Of a DNA stretch of 64,000 nt, positions 15,528 to 45,098 are shown in pieces. Under the pieces are notes generated by a model. It had not been told where the DNA came from. It saw nothing but the letters and a program-made list of their open reading frames with translations, and did not search any database. Numbering within the stretch: position 1 is the stretch's first letter; each line of letters opens with the position of its first letter. Where the stretch lies: NCBI GenBank assembly GCA_024233305.1, contig JACKPV010000023.1:590789-654788 (forward strand), in the 5' to 3' direction. This stretch comes from Verrucomicrobiales bacterium. GTDB taxonomy: Bacteria; Verrucomicrobiota; Verrucomicrobiia; Limisphaerales; J093. The translations under genes and the position numbers were made by a program.

Positions 15528-15615
15528 GGTGCGCATCTCAGCTCTTTCGGAGCGCGGAATTCATTCCGCAGCAAGGTTGACTCCCGGCGGGGTCTGCGGA
15601 GTGAATTCCGCGCTC

Positions 15616-17571
15616 GTGCGCCTGTGAGGGCGTCCATATTGCGAGGTGAAAGTCCTCGTCAGGCGGTTCATTCACCCGCCTGTGACCGAAGGCTACTGCG
15701 TCGTGGCAACACGGGGTGGAGAGCTGCCGGAGGTGAACCATCGGTCCGTAACGAAGCGAAGTGAGACAACGAAGCCATGTGAACCCGATTCGGCCACGCC
15801 GAGCGGCGAGCCTGCGAGCGCTGTGCGAAGCCCAGGCCATGACCCAAGTGGGAGGACTTCCCTCGGTCGGCACCAGGCGACCGGGTCTTCTGGCTGGCGG
15901 TCCCGGCAGAGGAAGAGTGGATGGAGACAAATGCCCGGACTGGCGCGGTGGGGTGGTTGGGGACGGAACGATGGGAAGCATGGGCGAAGGAAGCAGGGAG
16001 ACCCGTCGGGGAACAGAACGGTGTTCATGGCCGCAAGGTCCGAAGAGCCGCCCGGCGGGAGTCAGAGCGTCCATAGTAGCGAGGAAGCGGGGTAACGCCC
16101 GGGGAGCGAAGGGGCGCAGGGAAGTGGAGACGGAACGACCATGACGAACGACGAACGCCAAGAACGACCGGCGATAGTGTCTGGGGCAACCCAGGCTAAA
16201 CAAGCCGGAGAGGTCCGCGCCCCTGGGTGGTGGATCCAACGTTCGGTATGGACGGACCGGATGCTAACGCGGCTCGCCCAAAGCGGGTCGACAACGGTAT
16301 GGTTCGGACTCTGGGACAAAGTCTGCGCGCTGCGGAACCTGCAGGCCGCTTTCCACGCGGTATGGCGGAACCGGGGTGCTCCCGGAGTGGATGGACAAAC
16401 GGTGCAACAGTTCGACCAACAGGGGACGAGCGAATTGGCCCGCCTGGGGGAAGAATTGCGCACCGGGAGCTACCGCCGCCAACCGGCGCGGCGCGTCTGG
16501 ATCGGGAAAATGGGCACGACCGAGAAGCGACCGCTGGGCATCCCGGCGGTGCGGGACCGGACCGTGGAAGCGGCCTTGCGCAATGTTCTGGAGCCGATCT
16601 TGGAGCGGGACTTTGCCGAGTGCAGCTATGGGTTTCGACCGGGACGTGGCTGTCGGGAAGCGGTGGGAAGGGTGGAAGAGTGGATGAGCCAAGGCTACGT
16701 CTGGTGCGTGGACGCGGACCTCAAGAGCTACTTTGACACCATTCCGCATGAGGGACTGATGGCGTTGGTCAAACAGCGAGTGGTGGATGGCAGGGTCCTG
16801 GCGCTGGTGGAACAATGCCTGAAGGCCGGCGTGCTGGAAACGCTCAAGGGCTGGCAGCCGACCGAACGCGGGACCCCGCAGGGGGCCGTGATCAGTCCGC
16901 TCCTGGCGAACCTGTATCTCAACCCGTTGGACCAGGAGATGGAACGGCGGGGCTGGGCGATGGTGCGCTATGCGGATGATTTGGTGGTGCTGTGCCGGAG
17001 CCGGGAAGCGGCCGAGACGGTGCTGGACTATCTGCGGGAGTGGACCACGGGAGCGGGGCTGACCCTGCACCCGACCAAGACCCGGATAGTGAACGCCACC
17101 GACGAGGGATTCGATTTCCTGGGCTGGCACTTCCGCGGGGGGAAGAAATGGCCGCGGAAGAAGAGCCGCAAGAAGCTGCCGGAGCGGTTGCGACCGCTGA
17201 CGCGACGGACCCACGGGCGAAGCCTGGGGGAAATCATCGCGAAAGTGAACCCGATCCTGCGGGGTTGGCTCGGCTACTTCCGGGACAGTTACCCGACGGG
17301 CCTGAGTGGCCCGGATGGGTGGCTGCGCCGCCGCTTGCGGGCGCTGCTGCGCAAGCGGGAGAAGCGGCCCGGACACGGGCTGAGTGAAGCCGACAGCCGA
17401 CGCTGGCCGAACCGCTGGTTTGCGGCGCAGGGCTTGTTTAGTCTGGAACATGGCTCGCGCGCTTACAGTTAGTCTCGCCGAGACCCCACTGACCGGAGAG
17501 CCGTATGCGGGAAATCCGCCCGTACGGTTCGGAGGGAGGGGTGGCGCTAATCCCGTCATCCCTACCCCTAT
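15616..17571 (+). mobile_element. Group II intron, copy 1 (1956 nt, IIC-like)
   Basis: The 5' end is GTGCGCC and the 3' end is CCCCTAT. Domain V is GAGCCGTATGCGGGAAATCCGCCCGTACGGTTC at 17498..17530 (AGC triad, GAAA loop, bulge), followed by a domain VI-like helix. The ORF sits in domain IV. Confidence 0.9.
16141..17472 (+). CDS. Group II intron reverse transcriptase/maturase (no endonuclease domain)
   Basis: RT motifs present: RRVWIGKMGTTEKRPLGIP, GFRPGRGCREA, DADLKSYFDTIPH, GTPQGAVISPLLANLYL and VRYADDLVVLC (YADD). The maturase X motif is ILRGWLGYFR. The protein is 443 aa and ends shortly after the X domain. Confidence 0.92.
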   Translation: MTNDERQERPAIVSGATQAKQAGEVRAPGWWIQRSVWTDRMLTRLAQSGSTTVWFGLWDKVCALRNLQAAFHAVWRNRGAPGVDGQTVQQFDQQGTSELARLGEELRTGSYRRQPARRVWIGKMGTTEKRPLGIPAVRDRTVEAALRNVLEPILERDFAECSYGFRPGRGCREAVGRVEEWMSQGYVWCVDADLKSYFDTIPHEGLMALVKQRVVDGRVLALVEQCLKAGVLETLKGWQPTERGTPQGAVISPLLANLYLNPLDQEMERRGWAMVRYADDLVVLCRSREAAETVLDYLREWTTGAGLTLHPTKTRIVNATDEGFDFLGWHFRGGKKWPRKKSRKKLPERLRPLTRRTHGRSLGEIIAKVNPILRGWLGYFRDSYPTGLSGPDGWLRRRLRALLRKREKRPGHGLSEADSRRWPNRWFAAQGLFSLEHGSRAYS

Positions 17572-17655
17572 CAACTCTTCGGGCCGCACGGAGTCGGAAA
17601 ACACTGAGATGCGCACGGTTTTGAGGTCGGTCGAACTGCGGGCTTGCTTCCTGTG

Positions 17656-20106: not shown

Positions 20107-22062
20107 ATAGGGGTAGGGATGACGGGATTAGCGCCACCCCTCCCTCCGAACCGTACGGGCGGATTTCCCGCATACGGCTCTCCGGTCAGTGGGGTCTCGG
20201 CGAGACTAACTGTAAGCGCGCGAGCCATGTTCCAGACTAAACAAGCCCTGCGCCGCAAACCAGCGGTTCGGCCAGCGTCGGCTGTCGGCTTCACTCAGCC
20301 CGTGTCCGGGCCGCTTCTCCCGCTTGCGCAGCAGCGCCCGCAAGCGGCGGCGCAGCCACCCATCCGGGCCACTCAGGCCCGTCGGGTAACTGTCCCGGAA
20401 GTAGCCGAGCCAACCCCGCAGGATCGGGTTCACTTTCGCGATGATTTCCCCCAGGCTTCGCCCGTTGGTCCGTCGCGTCAGCGGTCGCAACCGCTCCTGC
20501 AGCTTCTTGCGGCTCTTCTTCCGCGGCCATTTCTTCCCCCCGCGGAAGTGCCAGCCCAGGAAATCGAATCCCTCGTCGGTGGCGTTCACTATCCGGGTCT
20601 TGGTCGGGTGCAGGGTCAGCCCCGCTCCCGTGGTCCACTCCCGCAGATAGTCCAGCACCGTCTCGGCCGCTTCCCGGCTCCGGCACAGCACCACCAAATC
20701 ATCCGCATAGCGCACCATCGCCCAGCCCCGCCGTTCCATCTCCTGGTCCAACGGGTTGAGATACAGGTTCGCCAGGAGCGGACTGATCACGGCCCCCTGC
20801 GGGGTCCCGCGTTCGGTCGGCTGCCAGCCCTTGAGCGTTTCCAGCACGCCGGCCTTCAGGCATTGTTCCACCAGCGCCAGGACCCTGCCATCCACCACTC
20901 GCTGTTTGACCAACGCCATCAGTCCCTCATGCGGAATGGTGTCAAAGTAGCTCTTGAGGTCCGCGTCCACGCACCAGACGTAGCCTTGGCTCATCCACTC
21001 TTCCACCCTTCCCACCGCTTCCCGACAGCCACGTCCCGGTCGAAACCCATAGCTGCACTCGGCAAAGTCCCGCTCCAAGATCGGCTCCAGAACATTGCGC
21101 AAGGCCGCTTCCACGGTCCGGTCCCGCACCGCCGGGATGCCCAGCGGTCGCTTCTCGGTCGTGCCCATTTTCCCGATCCAGACGCGCCGCGCCGGTTGGC
21201 GGCGGTAGCTCCCGGTGCGCAATTCTTCCCCCAGGCGGGCCAATTCGCTCGTCCCCTGTTGGTCGAACTGTTGCACCGTTTGTCCATCCACTCCGGGAGC
21301 ACCCCGGTTCCGCCATACCGCGTGGAAAGCGGCCTGCAGGTTCCGCAGCGCGCAGACTTTGTCCCAGAGTCCGAACCATACCGTTGTCGACCCGCTTTGG
21401 GCGAGCCGCGTTAGCATCCGGTCCGTCCATACCGAACGTTGGATCCACCACCCAGGGGCGCGGACCTCTCCGGCTTGTTTAGCCTGGGTTGCCCCAGACA
21501 CTATCGCCGGTCGTTCTTGGCGTTCGTCGTTCGTCATGGTCGTTCCGTCTCCACTTCCCTGCGCCCCTTCGCTCCCCGGGCGTTACCCCGCTTCCTCGCT
21601 ACTATGGACGCTCTGACTCCCGCCGGGCGGCTCTTCGGACCTTGCGGCCATGAACACCGTTCTGTTCCCCGACGGGTCTCCCTGCTTCCTTCGCCCATGC
21701 TTCCCATCGTTCCGTCCCCAACCACCCCACCGCGCCAGTCCGGGCATTTGTCTCCATCCACTCTTCCTCTGCCGGGACCGCCAGCCAGAAGACCCGGTCG
21801 CCTGGTGCCGACCGAGGGAAGTCCTCCCACTTGGGTCATGGCCTGGGCTTCGCACAGCGCTCGCAGGCTCGCCGCTCGGCGTGGCCGAATCGGGTTCACA
21901 TGGCTTCGTTGTCTCACTTCGCTTCGTTACGGACCGATGGTTCACCTCCGGCAGCTCTCCACCCCGTGTTGCCACGACGCAGTAGCCTTCGGTCACAGGC
22001 GGGTGAATGAACCGCCTGACGAGGACTTTCACCTCGCAATATGGACGCCCTCACAGGCGCAC
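20107..22062 (-). mobile_element. Group II intron, copy 2 (1956 nt) in a decayed MITE
   Basis: Same ends and length as copy 1, on the minus strand. The 5' flank hairpin arm is CTGCGGAATGAATTCCGCGCTC. A degenerate terminus GCGCGCATCCCGG at 20086..20098 matches the MITE end at 10 of 13 positions. Confidence 0.9.
20206..21537 (-). CDS. Group II intron reverse transcriptase/maturase
   Basis: 443 aa. It matches the copy-4 RT except H to N in RRTNGRS. Relative to copy 1 it also has Q for P in KKLQERL. Confidence 0.92.
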   Translation of the reverse strand: MTNDERQERPAIVSGATQAKQAGEVRAPGWWIQRSVWTDRMLTRLAQSGSTTVWFGLWDKVCALRNLQAAFHAVWRNRGAPGVDGQTVQQFDQQGTSELARLGEELRTGSYRRQPARRVWIGKMGTTEKRPLGIPAVRDRTVEAALRNVLEPILERDFAECSYGFRPGRGCREAVGRVEEWMSQGYVWCVDADLKSYFDTIPHEGLMALVKQRVVDGRVLALVEQCLKAGVLETLKGWQPTERGTPQGAVISPLLANLYLNPLDQEMERRGWAMVRYADDLVVLCRSREAAETVLDYLREWTTGAGLTLHPTKTRIVNATDEGFDFLGWHFRGGKKWPRKKSRKKLQERLRPLTRRTNGRSLGEIIAKVNPILRGWLGYFRDSYPTGLSGPDGWLRRRLRALLRKREKRPGHGLSEADSRRWPNRWFAAQGLFSLEHGSRAYS

Positions 22063-22173
22063 GAGCGCGGAATTCATTCCGCAGCAAGCTTGACGGCCGG
22101 TGGGGCCAGCGGAATGAACCCCGTGCACCATTTCCCCAGCCGCCTCGGACTTGTGAAAAGCTGCGCCGTGACC

Positions 22174-22213: not shown

Positions 22214-22598
22214 CTTTAGCCGTAACCATGCAGTAGGATCCACCACGGATGGGCACCTCGCGCGGGTCGCGGTGACGTCCGGTGCCTTGAACACACTCGG
22301 GCTGTCGACTTCTCGCTTCCCGCACCGCGAGCACGGCCTCCCTCACCAACCCAAGGCCCGAGGGCAGGCATGTGACAATATCAAGAACTGACCCCTTTGC
22401 AGTGATAACCCACGTTTCTGTGGGCGCCGGAGAGGGTGTGGAAACCGGCCTGAAGACTCCCGTCAGCGGATGACGTGCGAGCGAAGACTCACGAAAACGA
22501 CTGCAAATATTTCGCCCGAAGAAAGGGTTGACAGGTTTTTGGCAGCGCGAGCGGAGAGCTTGCCGGTCAGTCCGTGCACGCGGTATCATCCCGCCTCA

Positions 22599-23162
22599 AT
22601 GAGCGAGGTAACCCGGCTGCTGGATGCCGTGGAACGTGGCGAATCCCAGGCCGCGGAGGAATTGCTGCCGCTCGTATACGGGGAACTGCGCCGCCTGGCA
22701 GCGGTTCGCATGGCTGCCGAGAAGCCCGGCCAGACCCTGCAGGCGACTGCCCTGGTCCACGAAGCGTGGCTGCGGCTTGCCGGCAATGATCACCAACAGT
22801 GGCGCGGGCGAACTCACTTCTTCAGGGCTGCCGCCGAAGCCATGCGGCGGATTCTCATTGATCGCGCGCGGAGTAAGGCAGCCGCCAAACGCGGTGATGC
22901 GGTGCCGCTCGAGGAACTCCACGAAAGCCGCCTCGTGATGCGGGCACCAGAATCGGAGGCCCTCGCCGTGAATGAAGCCTTGGATGAACTCTCCGACACC
23001 GATCCCGTCGCCGCCCAGGTGGTCAAACTGCGCTACTTCGCCGGCATGACGGTCCCGGAGATTGCGCAGGTGCTCGGGGTCTCGGAGCGGACCGTGCATC
23101 GCAATTGGGCGTACGCCCGGTCCTGGTTGAAGGGGGCGATTCGTGACGGCGAAACGGTCTGA
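22599..23162 (+). CDS. ECF-type sigma-70 family factor, TIGR02999-like (the kinase-associated ECF group)
   Basis: The N-terminus MSEVTRLLDAVERGESQAAEELLPLVYGELRRLAAVRMAAEKPGQTLQATALVHEAWLRL is the characteristic start of this family. The region 4 HTH is MTVPEIAQVLGVSERTVHRNWAYARSWL. A Ser/Thr kinase lies immediately downstream. Confidence 0.85.
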   Translation: MSEVTRLLDAVERGESQAAEELLPLVYGELRRLAAVRMAAEKPGQTLQATALVHEAWLRLAGNDHQQWRGRTHFFRAAAEAMRRILIDRARSKAAAKRGDAVPLEELHESRLVMRAPESEALAVNEALDELSDTDPVAAQVVKLRYFAGMTVPEIAQVLGVSERTVHRNWAYARSWLKGAIRDGETV

Positions 23163-23273: not shown

Positions 23274-24406
23274 ATGAACGCCGAAGCCAAAGCCAGCGAT
23301 TGTCCCGAGCGCGACATCTTCTTCGAAGCCATCGAAAAGGCATCGGAGGAAGAGCGCGCGGCGTACGTCGAGGTGGCCTGCGGCGAGGATGCGGCCCTGC
23401 GTCGGCGCGTCGAGGTCCTGCTGACCGACCATTCCGAGGACGACGAGTTCATGCGGACCCCGGTCGCGGAGATTGTGGCCCTGGATACACCCAACGCGGC
23501 AACACTGGAACAACCCGGCACCCTGATCGGCCGCTACCGGCTACTGGAACCACTCGGCGAAGGCGGGTTCGGCGTGGTCCATCTGGCGGACCAACAGGAG
23601 CCGATCCGCCGCCAGGTCGCCCTGAAGATCATCAAGCTGGGCATGGACACCCGGCAGGTCATCGCCCGCTTCGAGGCCGAGCGGCAGGCCCTGGCGATGA
23701 TGGACCATCCCAACATCGCCAAGGTGCTCGATGCCGGGGTCACGGAGACTGGACGTCCCTACTTCGTCATGGAACGGGTCCGGGGCATTCCGATCACGCG
23801 GTTCTGCGAGGAAAACCGACTCTCGATCGAGGGACGCCTCGAACTCCTCATCCCCGTCTGCCACGCCATCCAGCATGCCCACCAGAAGGTGATCATTCAC
23901 CGGGACATCAAGCCCTCGAACGTCCTGGTCACGGGCAGTCCCGATGGTTCGGGCCACCCGATGGTGATCGACTTCGGAGTCGCCAAGGCCATCGAGGAAC
24001 CGCTTACCGACAAGCCGCTCCACACCAGCCTGCTCCAGATGATCGGCACGCCGGCTTACATGAGCCCCGAGCAGGCCGAGCGGGGACCGGGCGGCGTCAG
24101 CGATGTGGACACCCGCAGCGACGTCTATTCGCTGGGCATCCTGCTTTATGAACTCCTCACCGGCACCACGCCTTTTCCCGAGGAACGGCTGCGAGAAGCC
24201 GGGTTCGCCGAGATTCAACGGATCCTCAGCCAGGAGGAACCGCAGCAGCCGTCCGCCCGCCTTGCGGAAATCCAGGGGAGCACACGCGCCCCCGCGTGTC
24301 CCCGACCGGCGCCCCCGCCGGTTGGCTCTGGAAAGGGGGCTGGGGCCGGAAGTGAAAACGGATTCGACGGGGGCGTCGAATCCTGCACGCGAGGGCGCGT
24401 GCGCTC
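23274..24406 (+). CDS. Ser/Thr protein kinase, exon 1 (interrupted by group II intron copy 3)
   Basis: Hanks kinase motifs present: GEGGFGVVHLA, VALKIIK, IIHRDIKPSNVLV, DFGVAKA, GTPAYMSPEQ and DVYSLGILLYELLTG. The ORF-track tail beyond 24406 reads into the intron. Confidence 0.85.
24278..24406 (+). repeat. 129-nt hairpin cluster inside the kinase ORF, immediately 5' of intron copy 3
   Basis: Four local hairpins with C4 or G-rich tetraloops: 24282..24299 (ACACGCG-CCCC-CGCGTGT), 24305..24322 (ACCGGCG-CCCC-CGCCGGT), 24360..24383 (GGATTCGACG-GGGG-CGTCGAATCC) and 24385..24402 (GCACGCG-AGGG-CGCGTGC). The outer 21 nt are also mutually complementary, with 2 mismatches. Confidence 0.7.
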
Positions 24407-26362
24407 GTGCGCCTGTGAGGGCGTCCATATTGCGAGGTGAAAGTCCTCGTCAGGCGGTTCATTCACCCGCCTGTGACCGAAGGCTACTGCGTCGTGGCAA
24501 CACGGGGTGGAGAGCTGCCGGAGGTGAACCATCGGTCCGTAACGAAGCGAAGTGAGACAACGAAGCCATGTGAACCCGATTCGGCCACGCCGAGCGGCGA
24601 GCCTGCGAGCGCTGTGCGAAGCCCAGGCCATGACCCAAGTGGGAGGACTTCCCTCGGTCGGCACCAGGCGACCGGGTCTTCTGGCTGGCGGTCCCGGCAG
24701 AGGAAGAGTGGATGGAGACAAATGCCCGGACTGGCGCGGTGGGGTGGTTGGGGACGGAACGATGGGAAGCATGGGCGAAGGAAGCAGGGAGACCCGTCGG
24801 GGAACAGAACGGTGTTCATGGCCGCAAGGTCCGAAGAGCCGCCCGGCGGGAGTCAGAGCGTCCATAGTAGCGAGGAAGCGGGGTAACGCCCGGGGAGCGA
24901 AGGGGCGCAGGGAAGTGGAGACGGAACGACCATGACGAACGACGAACGCCAAGAACGACCGGCGATAGTGTCTGGGGCAACCCAGGCTAAACAAGCCGGA
25001 GAGGTCCGCGCCCCTGGGTGGTGGATCCAACGTTCGGTATGGACGGACCGGATGCTAACGCGGCTCGCCCAAAGCGGGCCGACAACGGTATGGTTCGGAC
25101 TCTGGGACAAAGTCTGCGCGCTGCGGAACCTGCAGGCCGCTTTCCACGCGGTATGGCGGAACCGGGGTGCTCCCGGAGTGGATGGACAAACGGTGCAACA
25201 GTTCGACCAACAGGGGACGAGCGAATTGGCCCGCCTGGGGGAAGAATTGCGCACCGGGAGCTACCGCCGCCAACCGGCGCGGCGCGTCTGGATCGGGAAA
25301 ATGGGCACGACCGAGAAGCGACCGCTGGGCATCCCGGCGGTGCGGGACCGGACCGTGGAAGCGGCCTTGCGCAATGTTCTGGAGCCGATCTTGGAGCGGG
25401 ACTTTGCCGAGTGCAGCTATGGGTTTCGACCGGGACGTGGCTGTCGGGAAGCGGTGGGAAGGGTGGAAGAGTGGATGAGCCAAGGCTACGTCTGGTGCGT
25501 GGACGCGGACCTCAAGAGCTACTTTGACACCATTCCGCATGAGGGACTGATGGCGTTGGTCAAACAGCGAGTGGTGGATGGCAGGGTCCTGGCGCTGGTG
25601 GAACAATGCCTGAAGGCCGGCGTGCTGGAAACGCTCAAGGGCTGGCAGCCGACCGAACGCGGGACCCCGCAGGGGGCCGTGATCAGTCCGCTCCTGGCGA
25701 ACCTGTATCTCAACCCGTTGGACCAGGAGATGGAACGGCGGGGCTGGGCGATGGTGCGCTATGCGGATGATTTGGTGGTGCTGTGCCGGAGCCGGGAAGC
25801 GGCCGAGACGGTGCTGGACTATCTGCGGGAGTGGACCACGGGAGCGGGGCTGACCCTGCACCCGACCAAGACCCGGATAGTGAACGCCACCGACGAGGGA
25901 TTCGATTTCCTGGGCTGGCACTTCCGCGGGGGGAAGAAATGGCCGCGGAAGAAGAGCCGCAAGAAGCTGCAGGAGCGGTTGCGACCGCTGACGCGACGGA
26001 CCCACGGGCGAAGCCTGGGGGAAATCATCGCGAAAGTGAACCCGATCCTGCGGGGTTGGCTCGGCTACTTCCGGGACAGTTACCCGACGGGCCTGAGTGG
26101 CCCGGATGGGTGGCTGCGCCGCCGCTTGCGGGCGCTGCTGCGCAAGCGGGAGAAGCGGCCCGGACACGGGCTGAGTGAAGCCGACAGCCGACGCTGGCCG
26201 AACCGCTGGTTTGCGGCGCAGGGCTTGTTTAGTCTGGAACATGGCTCGCGCGCTTACAGTTAGTCTCGCCGAGACCCCACTGACCGGAGAGCCGTATGCG
26301 GGAAATCCGCCCGTACGGTTCGGAGGGAGGGGTGGCGCTAATCCCGTCATCCCTACCCCTAT
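24407..26362 (+). mobile_element. Group II intron, copy 3 (1956 nt), inside the kinase ORF in sense orientation
   Basis: Same GTGCGCC...CCCCTAT ends and length as the other copies, anchored by conserved internal ORF offsets. Confidence 0.9.
24932..26263 (+). CDS. Group II intron reverse transcriptase/maturase
   Basis: 443 aa. It matches the copy-4 RT except S to P in LAQSGPTTVW. Confidence 0.92.
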   Translation: MTNDERQERPAIVSGATQAKQAGEVRAPGWWIQRSVWTDRMLTRLAQSGPTTVWFGLWDKVCALRNLQAAFHAVWRNRGAPGVDGQTVQQFDQQGTSELARLGEELRTGSYRRQPARRVWIGKMGTTEKRPLGIPAVRDRTVEAALRNVLEPILERDFAECSYGFRPGRGCREAVGRVEEWMSQGYVWCVDADLKSYFDTIPHEGLMALVKQRVVDGRVLALVEQCLKAGVLETLKGWQPTERGTPQGAVISPLLANLYLNPLDQEMERRGWAMVRYADDLVVLCRSREAAETVLDYLREWTTGAGLTLHPTKTRIVNATDEGFDFLGWHFRGGKKWPRKKSRKKLQERLRPLTRRTHGRSLGEIIAKVNPILRGWLGYFRDSYPTGLSGPDGWLRRRLRALLRKREKRPGHGLSEADSRRWPNRWFAAQGLFSLEHGSRAYS

Positions 26363-28136
26363 CCCGGAGGATGTCACGCTCGGTTTCAAGGTTCCCACCG
26401 ACCTCGACTGGATCGTGCTCAAGGCCATCGACAAGGACCGCAACCGCCGCTACGTCACCCCCAACGAACTGGCCGATGACCTCAGGCGTTTCCTCAAGAA
26501 CGAGCCCATCCTCGCCCGTCCTATCAGCCAGACCGCCAGAGTGTGGCGCTGGTGCCGACGTCACACGGCGGTCGCAGCCCTGACTGCCGGCTTGGTCCTG
26601 GCGCTGATCGCCGGCTTTGGCGGTACTCTCTGGCAGTTGCAGCGGGCGGAACAAAATGCTGCCGAGAACCTCCGCCAAGTCGCCCGGTTGAACGTCCTCA
26701 CCGGCGTCAACCTCCTGCAGGAAGGCGACTCCTTCAAGAGCCTGCTCTGGTTCGCCGAAGCCCTGGCGCTGAAGGCCGGGCCGCCCGAACGCGACGTCGT
26801 GGATCGGCTCCGCATCGCTTCCATCATCGCGCAAGGGCCGCGACTCGCCGCCGTCATCACCCACGACGGCCAACCCGTTGCCGACGCCGCCTTTCATTCC
26901 ACGAAGGATCAACTCGCCACCGTGGGACGCGACCGTCGCCTGCGCCTCTGGGACCTTGCCACCGTCGAGACAGTGTTCCTGACCGAACCCTTTGCCGAAC
27001 GTCCTTCCGAGGTCCTCTTCTCACCCGACGGCGAAGTGATCCTGGTGGGCAGCTCCGAGTTCAACCAGGTGCGCATGATCTCCGCGTTGGATGGCAAGCC
27101 GCTGAGCAACACCATCCCTCACTTTGCCGGCGGGGCGAACAACCGCCCGCTGCCACCACGCTTCGATGCTTTAGGTGAACGCCTTCTCACCCAAAGCGCA
27201 CCGAAAACACTTCGAGTCTGGGCTGTGCGCGACGGCTCCCCGCTCGGCCCGTCGATCCCGCTCGGCGCCCCGGTCGCGTGGACGGGCTTCAGCGAACATG
27301 GCACGCAAGTTCGGACGGTCACTCAGGACGGGAAGGCGACGACTTGGGATTGGCGAAGTGGAAGCCGGATATCGAACCCAGAACCCCGAACGCTGAATAT
27401 CGAAGGCGAGCCCAACTTCGACGTTGGACGTTCAGTGTTCGACATTCGAAGTTCGACTTCAGTCCGCAGCCCCGACGGCTCCCGCTACGCCACCCTTGCC
27501 GCCGATCACCGCGTGCGTGTCTGGGACTCGGGAACCGACGAACCGCTCACACCTCCCATCGACCATTTCACGGCGTCCGGCCCCGTCGGTTTCAGCGCCA
27601 ATGGCCGGTTCTTCTTCACGATGCACCCGGCCCATGCGGTGTACGTTTGGGAACTTCCGGAGAATACCGAACCGCCAGTCCTGCTCCGGCCCGAGGCCCC
27701 GAACACTCTGGCGGAGACTGGCCGGGACGGTTCGGTCATTGTGACCCGTGATCCGGGCAGCCCGATTCGCGTGCGGGCCCTGTCGGGTACCCAGGAAGTG
27801 TCCCTCCATCCCGCCAGCCTGAAGGAAGTTCCCGTGCAGGCATGGTTCGATGACACCGGCCAGTTCATCATCCTCGAATACCCGAACCAGCGTGCTCAGG
27901 TCTGGGATGCCACCTCCGGTCTGCCTGTCACTCCCGTGTTCCGGAGCCGCTACGCCACCAATGAAGCCGCCTACCGGACGATCCAGTTTCCTGATTTCCC
28001 ATCTGACACTCGCCACTCGCCGCCGCAGGCCCTGGCCGAACTCCTCTCCGGCAGCCGCCTCGACGGCACCGGCGGTTGGAAGCCGCTCGAACTGGGCGAC
28101 ATCCTCGCGCGCTGGAATGCTGTCAATCGCGAATAG
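26363..28136 (+). CDS. Ser/Thr protein kinase, exon 2 (juxtamembrane segment, TM helix, WD40-like beta-propeller)
   Basis: It resumes with PEDVTLGFKVPTDLDWIVLKAIDKDRNRRYVTPNELADDLRRFL, the typical post-catalytic segment of PVC kinases. It continues with the TM helix AVAALTAGLVLALIAGFGGTLW and WD-like repeats (RLRLWDLAT, TLRVWAV, HRVRVWDSGT, AVYVWEL, RAQVWDATS). Confidence 0.85.
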
Positions 28137-35936: not shown

Positions 35937-36300
35937 ACGAGAGATCTACAGTCGAACGCCGGCAGGGTAGTCATTTCAAGTGGTCATGTCAAACGACGGG
36001 TCGCTCTGGAGAAAAGAGAGGCCGGTCCTGAAGGCGGACACTGGTCTGCTCAGCGGTCATCCCCTGCGCTTGTGCCGGTCCTGGGGCAACAGGCTCGACG
36101 CCTTCGTCCACGCTTCCCTGGGCAGCCTTTCAGCCAGCCGCTTCAGCCTCATCGTGGGCTCCTGCGGCAGTCTGTGGCGTGCGCATCTCAGTTTTTTCAC
36201 AGCGAGGGAGAAATGGTGGTGTGAACGAAGCGCCACCGGCTGAAAAATAGTGTCATTTTAGACGGGACTCTGATCCTCCCCTTCGCCATAGTCCGCGGGC

Positions 36301-37212
36301 GTGACGGAGTGCGAAGTGATTCAAGGCCGGCGGATGGGCCCCGGGGATCTGACCCAGGTCAAGGACCTCCTGGCCCGGCATCCGGACTGGAGCCGATACC
36401 GTTTGAGCCGGGAACTGGCGCAGTTGTGGGCGTGGCGCAGCGCGGCGGGCCAACTCAAGGACATGGCCGCCCGGAGCCTGCTGCTCAAGCTCGAGCAGCG
36501 CGGCTGGATCACCCTGCCACCCTGCCGCTGGGCCTCGCCCAACCGGATGCGCCACAAACGCCCGCCCTCCCTGCCAGCGTCGTTCCATCCGGAGCCGCTA
36601 CCGGGCCCCTTGTCGGCGCTGCGACCGCTCAAGCTCAGCGAAGTCAGTGCCGGACCGGCGACCGAGCGGGCCCTGTTTGAAGGGTTGCTGCACCGCTATC
36701 ACTATCTGAGCCACCGCAGCCCGGTAGGGGAGAACCTCCAGTATTTGGTGCGGGAACGGGCCGGGCGACCGGTGGCCTGCCTGCTCTTTGGCGCGGCGGC
36801 TTGGCAGTGCGCCGATCGCGACCGCCACATCGGCTGGGATCGCGCCACGCGGGCGGCCCAGCTTCCTCTGATCGCCAACAACACGCGCTTCCTGATCCTG
36901 CCTTGGATTGGCGTGCCGGGACTCGCCAGCCATCTCCTGGCCCGCGTCAGCCGCCGGGTCCGGGCCGACTGGCAGCGCAAGTACGGGCACCCGGTTTATC
37001 TGCTGGAGACCTTTGTCGAGACCGGGCGTTTCGCCGGCACCTGTTATCGCGCGGCCAACTGGCAACGCGTTGGTCAGACCAAAGGTCGTAGCCGGCAGGA
37101 CTCCCCGGAGGGCGGAGCGCTGCAGGTCCCTCGCAAAGACGTCTATCTCTACCCGCTGATTCCCCGCTACGCCGAACGCTTGCGGGCAGTCCCCAACCCC
37201 ACCCATCCATGA
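36301..37212 (+). CDS. DUF4338-domain protein (IS accessory ORF)
   Basis: YHYLSHRSPVGENLQYLVRERAGRPVACLLFGAAAWQCADRDRHIGW...FLILPWIGVPGLASHLL...GHPVYLLETFVETGRFAGTCYRAANWQRVGQTKGR. The stop overlaps the transposase start (ATGA at 37209). Confidence 0.75.
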   Translation: MTECEVIQGRRMGPGDLTQVKDLLARHPDWSRYRLSRELAQLWAWRSAAGQLKDMAARSLLLKLEQRGWITLPPCRWASPNRMRHKRPPSLPASFHPEPLPGPLSALRPLKLSEVSAGPATERALFEGLLHRYHYLSHRSPVGENLQYLVRERAGRPVACLLFGAAAWQCADRDRHIGWDRATRAAQLPLIANNTRFLILPWIGVPGLASHLLARVSRRVRADWQRKYGHPVYLLETFVETGRFAGTCYRAANWQRVGQTKGRSRQDSPEGGALQVPRKDVYLYPLIPRYAERLRAVPNPTHP

Positions 37213-37836
37213 GCCCAGAAATCCCCCCCTCCGTTCCTCGCCGCTCCCGCCGACCCCACGTTAAAGTCCGCCGCGAGCAGCGCCGCCAAGCCCAAGAACA
37301 ACAACCCCTCACCGAGGAGATCCTGACGGCGGGCCAGGCGGCGGCGCAAGCCGCTGCCACCCTCTCCCAAGTGTGCCTCACCGAGGCCGAAGTGGCCGCC
37401 TGGCGCCAGGACCTGGAAAAGCGACTGGCCAGCCTCCAGGAGCACCCCGAACAGAACCTGGGCTTCATCGAGGAGCAACTCGCCCTGGCCAGCCGGGAAT
37501 CCATCCGCCTGCTGGCCGAGCGGGCCGCCCAGGCCAAGGCCAACGCCACCCCTTGCCAGTGCCTCACCTGCCAGCAACCCCTGCGGCGGCAGCGCTATCT
37601 GGCCCGCACCATCGAGTCGCGCTTCGGCCCCTTGCGGGTGTTCCGCAACTACGGCTGGTGCCCCAAGTGCGACGCGTGGCAGTTCCCGGCCGATCCCGCC
37701 TTGGCATTGAGTCGCCATGCCCCCGCTTCCCCCTATGTCCAGGAGATGGCCGCGCTGCTGGTAAGCAAAATGCCCCCCGAGCAGGCCGTGCCGGTGGCCC
37801 AACGCATGGGACTCCAACTCTCCCGCTGCACCCTCG
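37209..37836 (+). pseudogene. ISKra4-family transposase, N-terminal fragment (split by the IS21-like insertion)
   Basis: It carries the Zn-finger-like CQCLTCQQPLRRQRYLARTIESRFGPLRVFRNYGWCPKCDAWQFPAD. The reading frame continues exactly at 41709 once 37837..41708 is removed. Confidence 0.75.
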
Positions 37837-37949
37837 TGCGTAGCGACAATTAAAACTTTCCAGTGACGATTATCGGATTGGCGGTGGTTTGGGGATGATG
37901 AGGCGGCGGCCCCGCCCGAGGCCAGAAGGCCTCGGGGGGGCTGCCGCGA

Positions 37950-38460
37950 ATGATCACCAAACAACATTACCGAAAACTGATGAGCGAGTATCAAGAGACT
38001 GGAAACGTGAGCGTGAGCGCCATGAAGGCGGGGATGAGCCGGCCGACGGCGCAGAAGTATCTGAAGGCGGGTCAACCGCCGCAGGAACTTCAAGGGAAGC
38101 ACACTTGGCGGACGCGGGAGGATCCTTTGGAGGAGATCTGGCCGCAGGCTTTGGTGATGCTTGAGGAGAGCCCGGATCTGGAGGCGAAGGCTCTCTTCGA
38201 ATACCTGGGGGAACGGTCGCCGTGGGCGGTGCAGGAGAAGCAACTGCGGACCTTTCAGCGGCGGGTCAAGGTGTGGCGTCTGCAACATGGGCCGGACAAG
38301 GAGGTCTTTTTTCCTCAGGACTGGGAAGCCGGACGGGCGATCCAGTTGGACTGGACCAATGCGAACGAGCTGGCGGTGACTATCAGCGGGCAGCCATACG
38401 AGCACCAGCTTTGCCACTGCGTGTTGCCCCATTCCAACTGGGACTGGGCCACCCGGTGTT
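37950..38460 (+). pseudogene. istA: IS21-family transposase IstA, N-terminal fragment
   Basis: The HTH N-terminus is MITKQHYRKLMSEYQETGNVSVSAMKAGMSRPTAQKYLK. It is intact to ...HSNWDWATRC and then runs into the IS3-like left end. Confidence 0.75.
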
Positions 38461-38520
38461 TGGATCTCCCCCGATTTCGTGGACAGGGAGGGCGCAGTCA
38501 GCGAAGAAAGACCGACTGAC

Positions 38521-38853
38521 ATGCCCAAAACCAGACCTGCCTACACCGAAGAGTTCCGCCAGCAGGCGGTCCAACTGCTCCTGGACAGCGGTCGCCCCCT
38601 GGACCGGGTGGCCGCCGAACTGGGCGTCTCCGCCAACTCCCTCCGTTCCTGGCGGGACCGTTCCCTGGGCCGGGGGCGTGGAGCGCAGGCCCCTTCGACG
38701 CAGTCGAAGGGCCGGAGCGCAACGCCCCCGGCCCACGCCGCCGAGCAGATCCGCCAGCTCCACCGCGAGGTCCAATACCTCCGCCGCCAGCGCGACATCC
38801 TAAAAAAAGCCATGAGCATACTGGCCGGGGAACCGCAGGGCAGTATGCACTGA
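38521..38853 (+). CDS. IS3-family OrfA (HTH + leucine-zipper-like)
   Basis: MPKTRPAYTEEFRQQAVQLLLDSGRPLDRVAAELGVSANSLRSWR...QLHREVQYLRRQRDILKKA. Confidence 0.85.
   Translation: MPKTRPAYTEEFRQQAVQLLLDSGRPLDRVAAELGVSANSLRSWRDRSLGRGRGAQAPSTQSKGRSATPPAHAAEQIRQLHREVQYLRRQRDILKKAMSILAGEPQGSMH
38802..38808 (+). promoter_or_regulatory. A7 slippery run, candidate programmed -1 frameshift site for the OrfAB fusion
   Basis: AAAAAAA followed by G lies within orfA. The -1 frame is open from here (KKSHEHTGRGTAGQYALIDQLRSHFPL) into orfB, as is usual for the IS3 family. Confidence 0.55.
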
Positions 38854-38861
38854 TCGATCAA

Positions 38862-39728
38862 TTGCGGTCCCACTTTCCCCTCACCGAGCTCTGTGATGCC
38901 CTCGCCGTTTCCCGCTCCGGTTACCACGCCTCCCGCCGCCGCCAGCCCGGGCCCCGCGCCCGCCAGCAGGTGGTCCTGCTCCAGGCCATTGAGAAGGTCC
39001 GCGCCCATCGCCATGCCCGCTGTTACGGCAGTCCCCGGATGACTCATCAACTCCGTCGCCAGGGCCATCAGGTCTCCGAGAACCGTGTCGCCCGCCTCAT
39101 GCGCGCCAACCACCTGCGCGCCCGGCCCCGGCGTCCCTACCGACCCAAGACCACCCAGCCCGACCACGCTGCCTGTCCCTCCCCCAACCTCCTGGCCAGC
39201 GCGCCCGCCCCTACCGCCCCAGGCCAGCAACTGGTCAGCGACATCACCTACATTCCCACCGCCGAGGGCTGGCTCTACCTGGCCCTGGTCGTGGATCGTT
39301 TCAGCCGCAGCGTCTTTGGCTGGCACTTGGCCGACTCCCTTCACGCGGACCTGGTTTGCCACGCCCTGGACCACGCCCACCGCACCGGCCTGATCGGCCC
39401 CCAAGCGATCTTCCACTCCGATCGGGGCTGCCAATACACCGCCGCCCTCCTGCGCGGCCAACTCGCCCGCCTGGGCCTGCGCCAGAGCATGAGCGCCCGA
39501 GGGCATTGCTATGACAACGCCATGGCCGAAAGCGTCTTTGCCGCTCTCAAGGCCGAGGCCCTGCCCCCCGAGCAGCCCTTCGCCTCCCGGGCCCTGGCCC
39601 GCAGCGCCCTCTTCGACTACCTCGAAACCTTCTACAACCGCCAGCGCCTGCACAGTTCGCTCGGCTACCGGCCACCCCGAGAATTCCTGGATCTCTACTT
39701 CCAAACCCACCCTCTTGCACTACACTGA
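38862..39728 (+). CDS. IS3-family OrfB (DDE integrase core)
   Basis: VSDITYIPTAEGWLYLALVVDRFSRSVFGW, IFHSDRGCQYTA and HCYDNAMAESVFAALKAE give the D, D, E context. It is probably expressed as OrfAB by a frameshift at 38802..38808. Confidence 0.88.
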   Translation: MRSHFPLTELCDALAVSRSGYHASRRRQPGPRARQQVVLLQAIEKVRAHRHARCYGSPRMTHQLRRQGHQVSENRVARLMRANHLRARPRRPYRPKTTQPDHAACPSPNLLASAPAPTAPGQQLVSDITYIPTAEGWLYLALVVDRFSRSVFGWHLADSLHADLVCHALDHAHRTGLIGPQAIFHSDRGCQYTAALLRGQLARLGLRQSMSARGHCYDNAMAESVFAALKAEALPPEQPFASRALARSALFDYLETFYNRQRLHSSLGYRPPREFLDLYFQTHPLALH

Positions 39729-39781
39729 ACTCAACAAAACCCTGCGCCCCGCCTGTCCACTTTTTCGGGGGAAGACCAGTT

Positions 39782-40770
39782 TGTCGGAGTCGCTGCTGTC
39801 CTGCCGCCAGGGGCTCCAGGAAGCGCTGCAGCGCTTGGGCAAGGTGCCGCGGGAACTGCGGGTGGACAACAGCAGCGCGGCGACACACCGCGTCGGTGGC
39901 GGCGGGACGGGGCGTGAGTTCAATGAGCAGTTCGCCTCGCTCTGCGCCCATTACGGGCTGGTGCCGCGCACCATCGGGATCGACCGTCCCAACGAGAACG
40001 GGGATGTCGAGTCGAGCAACGGACATCTGAAGCGGCGCTTGCGGCAGCACTTGCTCTTGCGCGGCAGCCGGGACTTCGAGTCGGAAACGGCCTACGAGCG
40101 ATTCCTGGAGCAGGTGTTGGAGCGTGGCAATCGAAGCCGGCAGGAGAAGGTGGCCGCCGAGTTGGCGGTGATGAAGCCGCTGCCGCCGACGCGGTTGAGC
40201 GAGTATGACGAACTGACCTGCACCGTTGGGATGGCCAGCACGATTCGGGTCAAGAAGGTGGGCTACTCGGTGCCGGCGCGCTTGATTGGCCAAGAGCTCA
40301 AAGTGGAGGTGTACGAGCGCGAGCTCAGGCTCTACAGCGGGCGGGAGTTGTTGCTGGTTCTACCGCGCCAGGGTGGAGATCGGGGTGTGGTGCTCGATTA
40401 CCGCCACGTAATTGACCATCTGTTGCGCAAGCCCGGGGCCTTCGAGCGGTATCGCTATCGGGAGCAGTTGTTTCCCAGCCGGTCGTTTCGGCAAGCGCAC
40501 GATCACCTGGTCGGCAAACACGGTCAGCGTGGTGGCGCGGTCGAGTATTTGCGGTTGCTGAAGTTGGCCAGTGAGGTGGGCGAGAGCGACATCGAAGTGA
40601 TGCTGGCCGATTATCTGACCCCGCCTTATCCGGCCTGGAGTGTTCAGGAACTACGACGCCTCTTGCAGCCCGAGTCCCGGCCGGTGATCGAGCTGATCGA
40701 ACTGCAGCCGGAGTGCCATTCGTATGACGCGCTGTTGAGTCCAGAAACGGAGGTGGCCCATGCCGGCTGA
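39782..40770 (+). pseudogene. istA: IS21-family transposase IstA, C-terminal fragment
   Basis: It resumes with SESLLSCRQGLQEALQRLGKVPRELRVDNSSAATH...PNENGDVESSNGHLKRRL, the DDE region of IstA. Confidence 0.75.
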
Positions 40771-41608
40771 AGGACTGACGGTGCTCTTGCGCGCCTTCCG
40801 CCTGCCGACCATGGCGGCGATTTGGTCGGAGAGTGTCATCCGCGCTGAGCGGGAAGACTGGGGCTACCAACGGTTGCTGCAGCATCTGTGCGAGAGCGAG
40901 GCCCAGGATCGGCGTGAGCGCAAGGTGCAACGGTTGCTCCACGAATCCGGACTGCCGGAGGGCAAGACCCTGGGCAACCTGGAGGAGAAGTTGCTGCCGG
41001 TGAAGATCCGACGGTTGCTGCCGACGCTCCTGGAGGGCCGGTTTGTCGACCGCGGGGAAAACCTGCTGGTCTTTGGTTTGCCCGGGCGTGGCAAGACGCA
41101 CTTCTTGGCGGCGGTGGGCCGCGAGTTGGTTTTGCGTCATCGTTACCCGGTCCTGTTCACCCCGACGTTCAAGCTGGTGCAACGGTTGCTGGCCGCGAAG
41201 CAGGAACTGCGTTTGGAGAGCGAGCTCAAACGGCTGGATCGCTTTGCCGCCGTGATTTTGGACGATATCGGCTACGTGCAGCAGGATCGGCAGGAGATGG
41301 AGGTTCTCTTCACCTTCCTGGCGGAGCGCTATGAGCGGCGCAGCGTGCTGATCAGCAGCAATTTGGTCTTCTCCAAATGGGACCAGATTTTCAAGGACCC
41401 GATGACGACGATGGCGGCGATCGACCGTTTGGTGCATCACGCCACGATCCTGGAGTTCAACAACGAGAGCGTACGCGGGCAGCAGGCGCGCGGTCGGCAG
41501 AAGGGCCAGGCCGACGCACCCGAAGGCCCCTTCGGCTCCACTCCGTCTTTGGCGCCTGACGGCGCCAAAGACTCCGTTCCGCCGAAGGGGCCTTCCCCCC
41601 AAGACTAA
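40760..41608 (+). CDS. istB: IS21-family helper ATPase IstB
   Basis: Walker A is GLPGRGKTH and Walker B is AVILDDIGY. ISSNLVFSKW...DRLVHHATILEF is also present. Confidence 0.88.
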   Translation: MPAEGLTVLLRAFRLPTMAAIWSESVIRAEREDWGYQRLLQHLCESEAQDRRERKVQRLLHESGLPEGKTLGNLEEKLLPVKIRRLLPTLLEGRFVDRGENLLVFGLPGRGKTHFLAAVGRELVLRHRYPVLFTPTFKLVQRLLAAKQELRLESELKRLDRFAAVILDDIGYVQQDRQEMEVLFTFLAERYERRSVLISSNLVFSKWDQIFKDPMTTMAAIDRLVHHATILEFNNESVRGQQARGRQKGQADAPEGPFGSTPSLAPDGAKDSVPPKGPSPQD

Positions 41609-41708
41609 CCCTGGAGAACAGGTGAGGAGAGGAGGATTTCATCCCTGAGCCACTGGCAAAAAATAGTTGTCGCCGGTGCAAAGGAATAATTGTCGTTGAC
41701 CACCCTCG

Positions 41709-42676
41709 ACCGGGAGGCGCATCGCCAGGGCCTGCGGGCCCAGAGCTTGCGGGCCGCCCACTTGAGCCAACTCGACACCTCGGAGCAACTCCAAGGCTTG
41801 GTGGCCGGCCGCGAGGGGCCGCCTTCCCAGCCCTTCACCCTGGTCATTGAAATTGACGCGTGGAACATCCGCGAACGCGACCACTGGGGACAGACCGAGG
41901 CGTTGCGCGCCCAGGGCGAGAAACTCTCCCGCTGGCACTGGGTTTACGTGGGCACTGTCTTCCGTCTCGATCATCGCGCCCAAACCGCCGGGGGCCGACC
42001 GCTCATCAGCCAGCGGGCCTATGCCGTCACCCGCGGCGGCGTCGAGGCGCTGATCCGGCAGATCTACTACGAAGCCTTACGCCTCGGGATGGGGCAGGCC
42101 CAGGAGGTGCTGGTCATCGCCGACGGGGCCCTCTGGATTTGGAAGGCGGTGGCGGATCGTTTTCCCGATGCCCGCCAACGGCTCGACCTCTATCACGGCG
42201 AGGAACATCTCTGGGCTGTCGCTCGCGAGCTTTACGGCCAGGGCACGCCTGAAGCCCGGGCCTGGGTTGTCCCGCTGCTTGAACAGCTCCGCCGCGACGA
42301 GAGCCCCGCACTCATCCGGAGCCTGAAGGAACTCCAGCCCCGCCTGACCGAAAGCCTGCAGGAAAAGGTGCAGCAGCAAATCGACTACTTCGACAACAAC
42401 GCCCACCGCCTCCAATACCGGGACATCCTCCGCGCCCGCAAGGCCGTGAAGGAAGGAAATGCCACGGCCGCCCAGATCCGCAAAGCCAACGAACCCTTGG
42501 GCTCAGGCGCCATCGAATCGACCTGCCGCCAGTATCAGTGTCGTTTCAAACGCACCGGCCAGTTCTGGTCCACCGCCGGTGACGAGGCCCTGATGGGCTT
42601 GGAGACCTTCTGGCGCAACGGTCGCTGGCACGAGCTCTTCCCCCACGCCGAACTCACCTCCCCTCACCTCAACTAA
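41709..42676 (+). pseudogene. ISKra4-family transposase, C-terminal fragment
   Basis: DREAHRQGLRAQ...IEIDAWNIRERDHWGQ...VLVIADGALWIWKAVADRFPDARQRLDLYHGEEHLW...FWSTAGDEALMGLETFWRNGRW is the DDE region typical of ISKra4-type transposases. Confidence 0.75.
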
Positions 42677-43015
42677 ACACCCCACACCCTGGACCGCATC
42701 CCCTCCCGCCAAAAACCTGAGATGCGCACGTCTGTGGCCGGCGGTCTGGTGGTTGAAGAATCTGACAGATTAGAAGTTGATGACACGGCTTCCATGGCGT
42801 TCTCTTCCGAGGATTCCTCCAAAACCCCTTCTTCCTTCTTCGGGATACGCTTCTCGGGCGGCGCGCCGATCCTCATGTTCCAAAGAGTCGCGACAAAAGT
42901 GAAAGTGCGCATCTCAGTGTTTTCCGACTCCGTGCGGCCCGAAGAGTCGGAGCGCGGAATTCATTCCGCAGACCCCGCCGGGAGTCAACCTTGCTGCGGA
43001 GTGAATTCCGCGCTC

Positions 43016-44971: not shown

Positions 44972-45098
44972 CGAAAAAGCTGAGATGCGCACAAAGTGAA
45001 ACAGCGGTCTTGGTTTTTTGGCGTGGGGCACATAAGCTCTGGTCATTGAACCCGAGGACAGCGCCCGGCGCGTCTGACCGATTGAAAGCACATATTCC

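Follow-up and report, generated by a model that had tools for sequence, protein, structure and literature searches.

The DNA analysed here is a 64-kb window, by which we mean the whole stretch of 64,000 nt, from a Verrucomicrobiales metagenome-assembled genome (MAG), and all window coordinates refer to it. It harbours a gene for a Ser/Thr kinase that is split by a group II intron, and the end of exon 1 consists of a 129-nt cluster of hairpins (24278-24406, GAGC...GCTC), which is the subject of this work. Joined, the two exons encode a Ser/Thr kinase of 968 aa that has a transmembrane segment and a beta-propeller, exon 2 showing 100% identity to P0001. The gene for an extracytoplasmic function (ECF) sigma factor is located upstream, and the same pair of ECF sigma factor and kinase genes is present at the loci L001 and L002, which contain intron-free orthologues. 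We consider it likely, with a probability of about 0.8, that the hairpin cluster is an old in-frame copy of a palindromic repeat family resembling repetitive extragenic palindromic (REP) sequences and their doublets (REPINs), which resides in a loop of the kinase and was later entered by a hairpin-seeking intron.

An initial annotation, made from the sequence alone, had described four perfect hairpins (hp1 to hp4) in the segment, and all of them were recovered as exact string matches with the stems and loops given there. The outer 21-nt inverted repeats (24278-24298 and 24386-24406) are likewise present, being 90% complementary with 2 mismatches, and so is their extension by GGG (24275-24277) and CCC (26363-26365), which pair from opposite sides of the intron. 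The minimum free energy (MFE) of the RNA fold of the segment is -84.1 kcal/mol as compared to -61.6 ± 4.2 kcal/mol for 200 dinucleotide shuffles (z = -5.4), none of which equalled it (0/200). A chance GC-rich palindrome was rejected on the basis of this shuffle-tested fold and of the covariance-model matches described below. In frame the segment translates into STRAPACPRPAPPPVGSGKGAGAGSENGFDGGVESCTRGRVRS (STRAP...RVRS). The annotated stop-free reading of the 129 nt over 43 codons stands, but its register is shifted, as the codons run from 24279 to 24406 and codon 43 (TC|C) is completed by 26363, the first base of exon 2. With the limits taken from the family termini, the whole kinase copy comprises ~141 nt, i.e. 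24272-24406 plus 26363-26368.

Table 1. Positions and properties of the features in the window
Feature	Position	Strand	Remarks
ECF sigma factor gene	22470..23162	+	upstream of the kinase gene
Ser/Thr kinase, exon 1	23274..24406	+	start ATG at 23274
Ser/Thr kinase, exon 2	26363..28136	+	stop codon included; helix DLDWIVLKAI, transmembrane segment, beta-propeller
Element, part 5' of the intron	24272..24406	+	CCAG-GGGAGC...GCGCTC; from covariance model R1 and family termini
R1 match, 5' half	24272-24331	+	48.4 bits
R1 match, 3' half	24354-24406	-	51.8 bits; truncated by the intron at model position 7
hp1	24282..24299	+	ACACGCG-CCCC-CGCGTGT; 7-bp stem, CCCC loop; family consensus GCACGCG-CCTC-CGCGTGC
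hp2	24305-24322	+	ACCGGCG-CCCC-CGCCGGT; exact string match
hp2 including variable outer stem	24304..24323	+	surrounds conserved GGCGCC(C)YCGCC core; covarying pairs 9/9, 94% paired
Variable centre of the element	24324..24359	+	diverged among the three orthologous kinase copies
hp3	24360..24383	+	GGATTCGACG-GGGG-CGTCGAATCC; 10-bp stem, GGGG loop; mirror of hp2
hp4	24385..24402	+	GCACGCG-AGGG-CGCGTGC; 7-bp stem, AGGG loop; mirror of hp1
Element, last 6 nt (CC-CGGA)	26363..26368	+	cut off by the intron; 26363 = putative base of intron-binding site 3 (IBS3)
Putative intron-binding site 1 (IBS1), GCGCTC	24401..24406	+	hexamer common to the four intron sites
Group II intron in the kinase gene	24407..26362	+	1956 nt, sense orientation; junction validated by intron-free homologues
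Candidate exon-binding site 1 (EBS1), GAGCGC	24607..24612	+	inferred; sole exact complement of GCGCTC in domains I-III; partly in a predicted loop
Intron-encoded reverse transcriptase (RT)/maturase, 443 aa	24932..26263	+	TIGR04416, 379 bits; model covers residues 65-406
Intron domains V-VI	26287-26362	+	Rfam
Intron copy	15616-17571	+	
Intron copy	20107-22062	-	
Intron copy	43016-44971	+	
66-nt hairpin (GAGCGCGGAATTC...GAATTCCGCGCTC)	15550..15615	+	target of intron copy 15616-17571
66-nt hairpin, further copy	42950..43015	+	target of intron copy 43016-44971
66-nt hairpin, degenerate	22063..22128	-	target of intron copy 20107-22062

Scanning metagenomes with a pattern that consists of the termini only (GGGAGCRCACGCGSC-N95-125-GCGCTCCC) yielded at least 120 loci. 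The question of multiple copies raised by the initial annotation has two answers, as the 64-kb window contains the element once, and in metagenomes the family to which it belongs is multicopy. The terminus pattern could yield chance matches in GC-rich DNA, and a few of the matches listed, e.g. L056, look like such. Most of the matches listed, to which the counts of copies and half-units given below also refer, share features that lie outside the query, namely hp1 (GCACGCG-CC(C)T-CGCGTGC), hp2, a variable centre and the mirror-image hp3 and hp4. Each family copy consists of a two-hairpin unit and its inverted duplicate, the consensus of the unit being TCYG-GGGAGCGCACGCG-CCTC-CGCGTGC followed by a variable stem around GGCGCC(C)TCGCC, and the palindromic units are 18-22 nt long. 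In hp2 the GGCGCC(C)TCGCC core is conserved and framed by hypervariable complementary flanks (87 distinct 7-mers), which pair at 6/7 or more positions in 124 of 141 cases. When 126 half-units were aligned, 95.3% of the cells paired, as compared to 76% after shuffling and at most 52% after sliding, and all of the nine pairs of hp2 covaried (9/9).

From family copies of unrelated metagenome loci we built a covariance model of the half-unit, R1, the 3' half of the window element being outside the training set. Against the 64-kb window R1 gave exactly two matches, which are the halves of the kinase element (E ~1e-9 to 1e-10), and the next best score in the window was 12.5 bits. The conserved family termini reach TCYG|GGGAGC...GCTCCC|CRGA, and the flanks beyond them are random. 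The initial annotation had not found a target-site duplication at the kinase element; likewise, 119 of the copies listed showed no excess of 2-9 nt direct repeats at any offset. Several metagenome contigs carry 3-4 family copies per ~14 kb, and the taxonomically labelled copies (window, L001, L002 and L053) are all from Verrucomicrobiota. Judged by its sequence, the segment is a member of a dispersed REP/REPIN-like family and not a native structured linker of the kinase, which the annotation had still allowed for; as described below, it is also missing in the sister kinases.

This repeat family, widespread in soil bacteria, seems to be undescribed so far. Rfam at gathering thresholds returned nothing but the intron domains V-VI, and with E-value thresholds it added only long-hairpin matches to plant miRNA families, which were below threshold, and a weak match to D1D4-4. 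A typical family copy had no BLASTN match among 72,556 plasmids, the sole match of a 24-mer of hp2 in a scan of genome contigs was a chance one within a coding region of Streptomyces, and the terminal sequences of the family were not found in the full-text literature searched. On L047 two family copies (777-910 and 3542-3674) have flanks that are also reverse complements of each other, so that they may belong to a larger inverted duplication or result from an assembly artefact.

The niche of the family is mostly intergenic. No long open reading frame (ORF) runs across the copy in 82 of the 89 listed copies with enough flank, copies with an ORF on either side have these in convergent arrangement in 13, tandem in 20 and divergent in 1 case, and the median distance from a copy to the 3' end of an ORF is 31.5 nt, so that the copies are mostly located just downstream of genes. 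This niche is REP-like, and it is equally that of terminators. Among the matches listed the 149 nearest ORFs match 151 different Pfam families, chiefly housekeeping ones, and a kinase was found beside none of 122 copies. Roughly 3-5% of the listed copies are located in coding sequence, and three of them are in frame in real proteins, i.e. in the PHP domain of a Pol III alpha (L088), in a UvrD-like helicase (L061) and in a GH63-like hydrolase (L015). The Pol III alpha-like gene spans 101-3496 of L088, its copy corresponds to aa 159-204, and a second look-alike segment (lgsarapratf...ntrgtcalq) is located near the C-terminus. Five independent insertions into coding sequence (window 24276, L004, L015, L061 and L088) have an identical frame at the 5' end of the element, GGG AGC GCA/ACA CGC, corresponding to G-S-A/T-R; with equiprobable frames ~1% would be expected, in what is a small sample.

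We then delimited the kinase linker, which extends from PSxRL to DLDWI, in 108 of 120 homologues. It is nearly always ~32 aa long, including the best full-length relatives P0002 and P0003, and among the homologues examined only P0019 (GCA_024233225.1) and P0023 (from a Pedosphaerales MAG) have the same ~45-aa segment in the same place. Neither contains the intron, and both have the ECF sigma factor gene as neighbour like the window. The kinase alignment proposed in the initial annotation thus identifies the 43 residues as an insertion that is absent from P0002, P0003 and ~100 other homologues. In a neighbour-joining tree of the kinase cores the window kinase, P0019 and P0023 form an exclusive clade with the insert-free P0002 and P0003 as sisters, indicating a single insertion in the ancestor of this clade. 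Since it is common to two intron-free orthologues whose kinase core is ~80% identical to that of the window, the insertion is ancient and not recent. The annotation had regarded conservation of the segment in intron-free orthologues together with a single-copy nucleotide sequence as speaking against its proposal; formally, the segment shows both, being conserved in those orthologues and single-copy in the window, yet the idea of an insertion stands. As to the suggestion that the insert is tolerated because its length is a multiple of three, it is indeed in frame, but this is a condition of survivorship. Outside the element, moreover, the linker falls ~14 residues short of that of the sister kinases, so a deletion came with or after the insertion.

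In the AlphaFold2 model of P0019 (mean pLDDT 70.6) residues 326-376 are coil with a pLDDT < 50 between the helices 316-325 and 378-387, which places the insert in a predicted disordered loop. A homologue search with the linker region returned short kinase fragments only and no additional insert-bearing kinase, and a word-index peptide search with the 43-45 aa insert gave no match. As phmmer with the insert peptide against 1.84 billion representatives also produced just two weak low-complexity matches, the peptide in its exact form does not appear to be a widespread protein motif.

The same kinase loop was hit a second time. P0040 (L004) has a linker of 73 aa, and its DNA contains an element with the common termini GGGGAGCGCACGCGCCTCGCGTGC ... 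GCACGCGAGGTGCGCGCGCTCCCC and a wholly different interior. It is remote from the window clade, their common ancestor covering 104 of the 116 sequences of the tree, and its neighbours at 84-86% identity have a plain 33-aa linker without insert. This comparison of sequences shows P0040 to have gained another family member independently in the same loop. P0040 also contains a second in-frame palindromic insert of a different family (GGGGGGAAGTTCGAAGTTCGAGATTCGAAGG..., L004 2005-2180, residues 168-224; MFE -97.4, z = -4.8) in the N-lobe loop before GRPYFVME, and P0003 has an insert in this N-lobe loop, too. In the PSxRL-DLDW loop the kinase fragments P0125, P0133, P0139, P0140 and P0144 carry unrelated extensions of 10-30 aa (e.g. 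...GLVPRAATAHGTRSVPAT...). These resemble what other palindromic repeats would yield on translation, and the loop therefore seems to be a general insertion sink.

The hairpin arms are conserved to an unusual degree when the window is compared with L001 and L002. Nucleotide identity is 80-82% in the catalytic domain and 94-95% in the 31 hairpin codons, and at third codon positions the values are 63-67% and 97-100%, respectively (binomial p ~7e-5), while the centre of the element diverged in the same comparison. In hp4 an A-T pair of the window is replaced by C-G in L002, with L001 exhibiting the C x T intermediate. As the arms are nearly unchanged even at synonymous sites, the data point to a constraint on nucleic-acid pairing itself. 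In quasipalindrome correction, hairpin-templated repair can keep arms perfect without selection. We infer that either such hairpin-templated correction or selection on the DNA or RNA structure causes the conservation of the arms.

Intron-free homologues read GCGCTCCCC unbroken across the insertion site of the intron, which validates the splice junction and demonstrates that the element is older than the intron. The intron is located inside the element (GCGCTC|CCCCGGA), in the outer stem and 6 nt from the 3' end of the element. The four best solved-structure matches of its RT are RTs of class C (IIC) introns, ahead of IIB and IIA, and the consensus intron protein has no exact database record. 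Altogether the 64 kb contain four intron copies, and as each of them departs from the consensus at a single private site (intron positions 654, 673, 1565 and 1597, respectively, in no stated order), a recent burst of intron spread is suggested. The three other copies follow a 66-nt hairpin (GAGCGCGGAATTCATTCCGCAG...CTGCGGAGTGAATTCCGCGCTC, degenerate in one case) that is unlike the kinase element. At all four sites the intron follows ...GCGCTC|C, where a long GAGC...GCTC hairpin has its 3' foot, bearing out the earlier proposal that the element supplied the stem-loop for the intron, and no similarity among the sites was found at positions -7 to -13. All window hairpins of at least 12 bp that end in GCGCTC are occupied by an intron. 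The window without its introns contains 27 GCGCTCC, and the 4 occupied ones are all associated with a hairpin, whereas 0 of 21 hairpin-less ones are occupied (Fisher p = 8.5e-4). Target recognition by the intron appears to involve a stem-loop together with the ~7 nt GCGCTC|C, probably through pairing of EBS1 (GAGCGC) with IBS1 and of EBS3 with IBS3.

From these results the following course of events can be proposed. In the common ancestor of three verrucomicrobial lineages a copy of the family would have entered the variable, predicted-disordered loop that precedes the DLDWIVLKAI helix, and the insert may have survived because it is read through without a stop and the loop tolerates changes in length. 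The hairpin arms would then have been kept near-unchanged, even at synonymous sites, and much later a retromobile group II intron would have entered the 3' arm between GCGCTC and CCCCGGA. Since the intron is in sense orientation and its junction is exact, splicing should restore the reading frame of the kinase. Because target-site duplications are missing, the family was probably mobilised by a single-strand transposase that recognises hairpins. The mode of mobilisation, the cause of the arm conservation and the EBS/IBS pairings are our proposals, while the family membership, the in-frame insertion, the shared ancestry, the second independent insertion in a kinase and the pattern of the intron sites are demonstrated by the comparisons above.

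Several observations weigh against this scenario. The taxonomy is known for few family copies only, and neither the 64-kb window nor the 7-15 kb of DNA that surround each homologue contain more than one copy. The family does not have the GTAG or CGTC tags of the described REP superfamilies, and no RAYT or other transposase is tied to it, none being recurrent in the 149 neighbouring ORFs, which says little in the case of RAYTs as these are single-copy. The strong conservation at synonymous sites would also fit an exapted functional structure. As to the intron, 3 of the 4 sites are copies of a single repeat, leaving two independent target types. In addition, domain V (GAGCCGUAUGCGG...) exhibits an AGC triad and not the CGC reported to be typical of IIC introns, and the shared putative IBS1 of 6 nt exceeds the 3-4 bp described for IIC. 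For these latter two reasons we do not file the intron as IIC, although it behaves like one.

We weighed the proposed insertion of a REP/REPIN-like copy against other origins of the segment. A functional structure that is native to the kinase gene or its mRNA or was exapted there, e.g. regulatory hairpins or a protein-binding site kept by selection, would agree with the difference in third-position identity between hairpin codons and catalytic domain, with the compensatory A-T to C-G change in hp4 and with the retention of the segment in three lineages. Its absence from the sister kinases and ~100 other homologues, the same architecture at the 120 or more unrelated loci and the free drift of the element's centre make this quite unlikely, and hairpin-templated repair could, in our interpretation, preserve the arms without selection; exaptation may have followed the insertion. 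The initial annotation had left the choice between a miniature inverted-repeat transposable element (MITE) and a REP-like insertion, and of these the REP-like insertion was corroborated. A classical MITE, i.e. a deletion derivative of an insertion sequence (IS) whose terminal inverted repeats are bound by the DDE transposase that mobilises it, would have the conserved terminal inverted repeats and the variable interior seen here, and a genuine MITE with its parent transposon is present elsewhere in the window. This origin is nevertheless highly improbable for the kinase element, as target-site duplications are lacking at any offset in the 119 listed copies, the termini themselves are hairpins with covarying stems and no transposase recurs in the 149 ORFs neighbouring the listed copies. 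There is next to no chance that the element was brought or made by the intron, for instance as co-mobilised 5' exon sequence, even though it directly adjoins the intron: it is complete in the intron-free L001 and L002, and the three other intron copies have a different upstream sequence, which refutes such an origin.

The way in which the intron found its target can also be explained without the hairpins. If it were an ordinary sequence-homing intron, the hairpins would be incidental and the kinase site would be an ectopic 7-nt match, in agreement with the AGC of domain V in place of the IIC-type CGC (PMC1702495), with the 6 nt shared as IBS1 and with the three sites that are copies of one repeat. 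We give this explanation a slim chance, since the two target types are not similar at -7 to -13, where IBS2 would be expected, since among the 27 GCGCTCC sites the 4 occupied are all at hairpin feet and no hairpin-less one is occupied (p = 8.5e-4), and since targeting of stem-loops is established for endonuclease-less (En-less) class C introns (PMC4424553). Going beyond the insertion of a REP/REPIN-like copy, one may also think of a new class of hairpin-based mobile or functional elements, with labelled copies in Verrucomicrobiota only, that has its own mobilising enzyme, whose four-hairpin structure is actively maintained in coding sequence because of a function there, e.g. as a structural signal of the RNA or DNA, and which serves as landing pad for an intron that possibly regulates the kinase. 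We consider this rather unlikely; if true, it would include an unusual hairpin-targeting (IIC-like) intron in a bacterial ORF, with a host protein that depends on splicing.

Known REPs are palindromic units of 20-40 bp that occur in multiple copies per genome, mostly between convergent or unidirectional ORFs near their 3' ends, and in the REP superfamilies one end of the unit bears the tetranucleotide GTAG or CGTC (PMC3733652). In REPINs two inverted REP units around a spacer form one hairpin, and the gene for the cognate RAYT, a Y1 transposase, is flanked by the repeat (PMC3116915). In-frame intragenic REP dimers have been described, often in genes for replication or repair, and the verrucomicrobium Opitutus terrae is among the species that have them (PMC3733652). 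The new family resembles REPs, bacterial interspersed mosaic elements (BIMEs) and REPINs (PMC3116915, PMC3733652) in being an inverted doublet of short palindromes around a spacer that can fold into one hairpin, in its dispersed occurrence, with several copies on some metagenome contigs, directly downstream of genes and seldom between divergent ones, in the lack of a target-site duplication and in its occasional in-frame genic copies, notably in replication or repair genes. It differs from REPs by its consensus TCTGGGGAGCGCACGCGCCTCGCGTGCnG....CGGCGCCnTCGCCG (126 half-units among the matches listed), from which the GTAG/CGTC tag is absent, and from REPs and REPINs by having two hairpins in each half, of which the second has a hypervariable, covarying stem, and by termini that are conserved over many metagenomes instead of being species-specific.

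Rickettsia palindromic elements (RPEs), reportedly described by Ogata et al. in 2000, are said to be ~100-150 nt long and to occur in frame in unrelated protein genes. They are also mentioned in the REP literature (PMC3733652). Like RPEs, the new family provides in-frame palindromes in unrelated genes, with a tolerated added peptide and intact host domains. In contrast to RPEs it is found in another host phylum and is mostly intergenic, with ~3-5% of the copies in coding sequence; a relationship in sequence was not expected.

IIC introns target stem-loops such as intrinsic terminators and integron attC sites, using a short IBS1 and no IBS2 (PMC1702495, PMC4424553). They are said to be absent from ORFs, and their domain V has CGC and not the AGC triad at its base (PMC1702495). 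The intron of the kinase gene corresponds to them in its position at the 3' foot of a stem-loop and in its putative short IBS1 and IBS3 without IBS2, and the intergenic copies of the repeat occupy the niche of terminators. Here, however, the stem-loop is a repeat and neither a terminator, as it has no T-tract, nor attC, one target is within an ORF, and the intron is inserted inside the stem and not 3-11 nt beyond it; the apparent IBS1 of 6 nt and the AGC of domain V are further differences. What is new is the repeat family itself and a palindromic repeat in a kinase ORF as landing site of a hairpin-targeting intron, whereas the kinds of components are known. The locus is a natural case in which a palindrome makes a coding region a target for a stem-loop-seeking intron. 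With two independent insertions in one kinase loop and the copies in replication and repair enzymes, the family illustrates how selfish palindromes turn into protein segments, and the preservation of the arms while ~1/3 of the catalytic third positions changed offers a test case for structure selection versus hairpin-templated repair.

With bacterial MITEs the kinase element shares the nature of a small non-autonomous repeat with terminal inverted repeats, but it has neither a target-site duplication nor a parent IS, unlike the genuine MITE of the window. This MITE is 132 nt long and is present in two copies (15529-17616 and 42905-44992), each of which contains an intron copy in its central 66-nt hairpin. 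Both MITE copies are flanked by target-site duplications of 9 bp (GGTTTTGAG and AAAGTGAAA), and their terminal inverted repeats of 13 bp (GTGCGCATCTCAG) are perfect. The autonomous parent of the MITE is probably a 6.55-kb element at 36179-42729, which shares these inverted repeats and also shows a duplication of 9 bp (GTCTGTGGC). It carries genes for a DruA-like protein (36301-37212) and for a protein (39511-40770) that has the C-terminal domain of Mu transposases.

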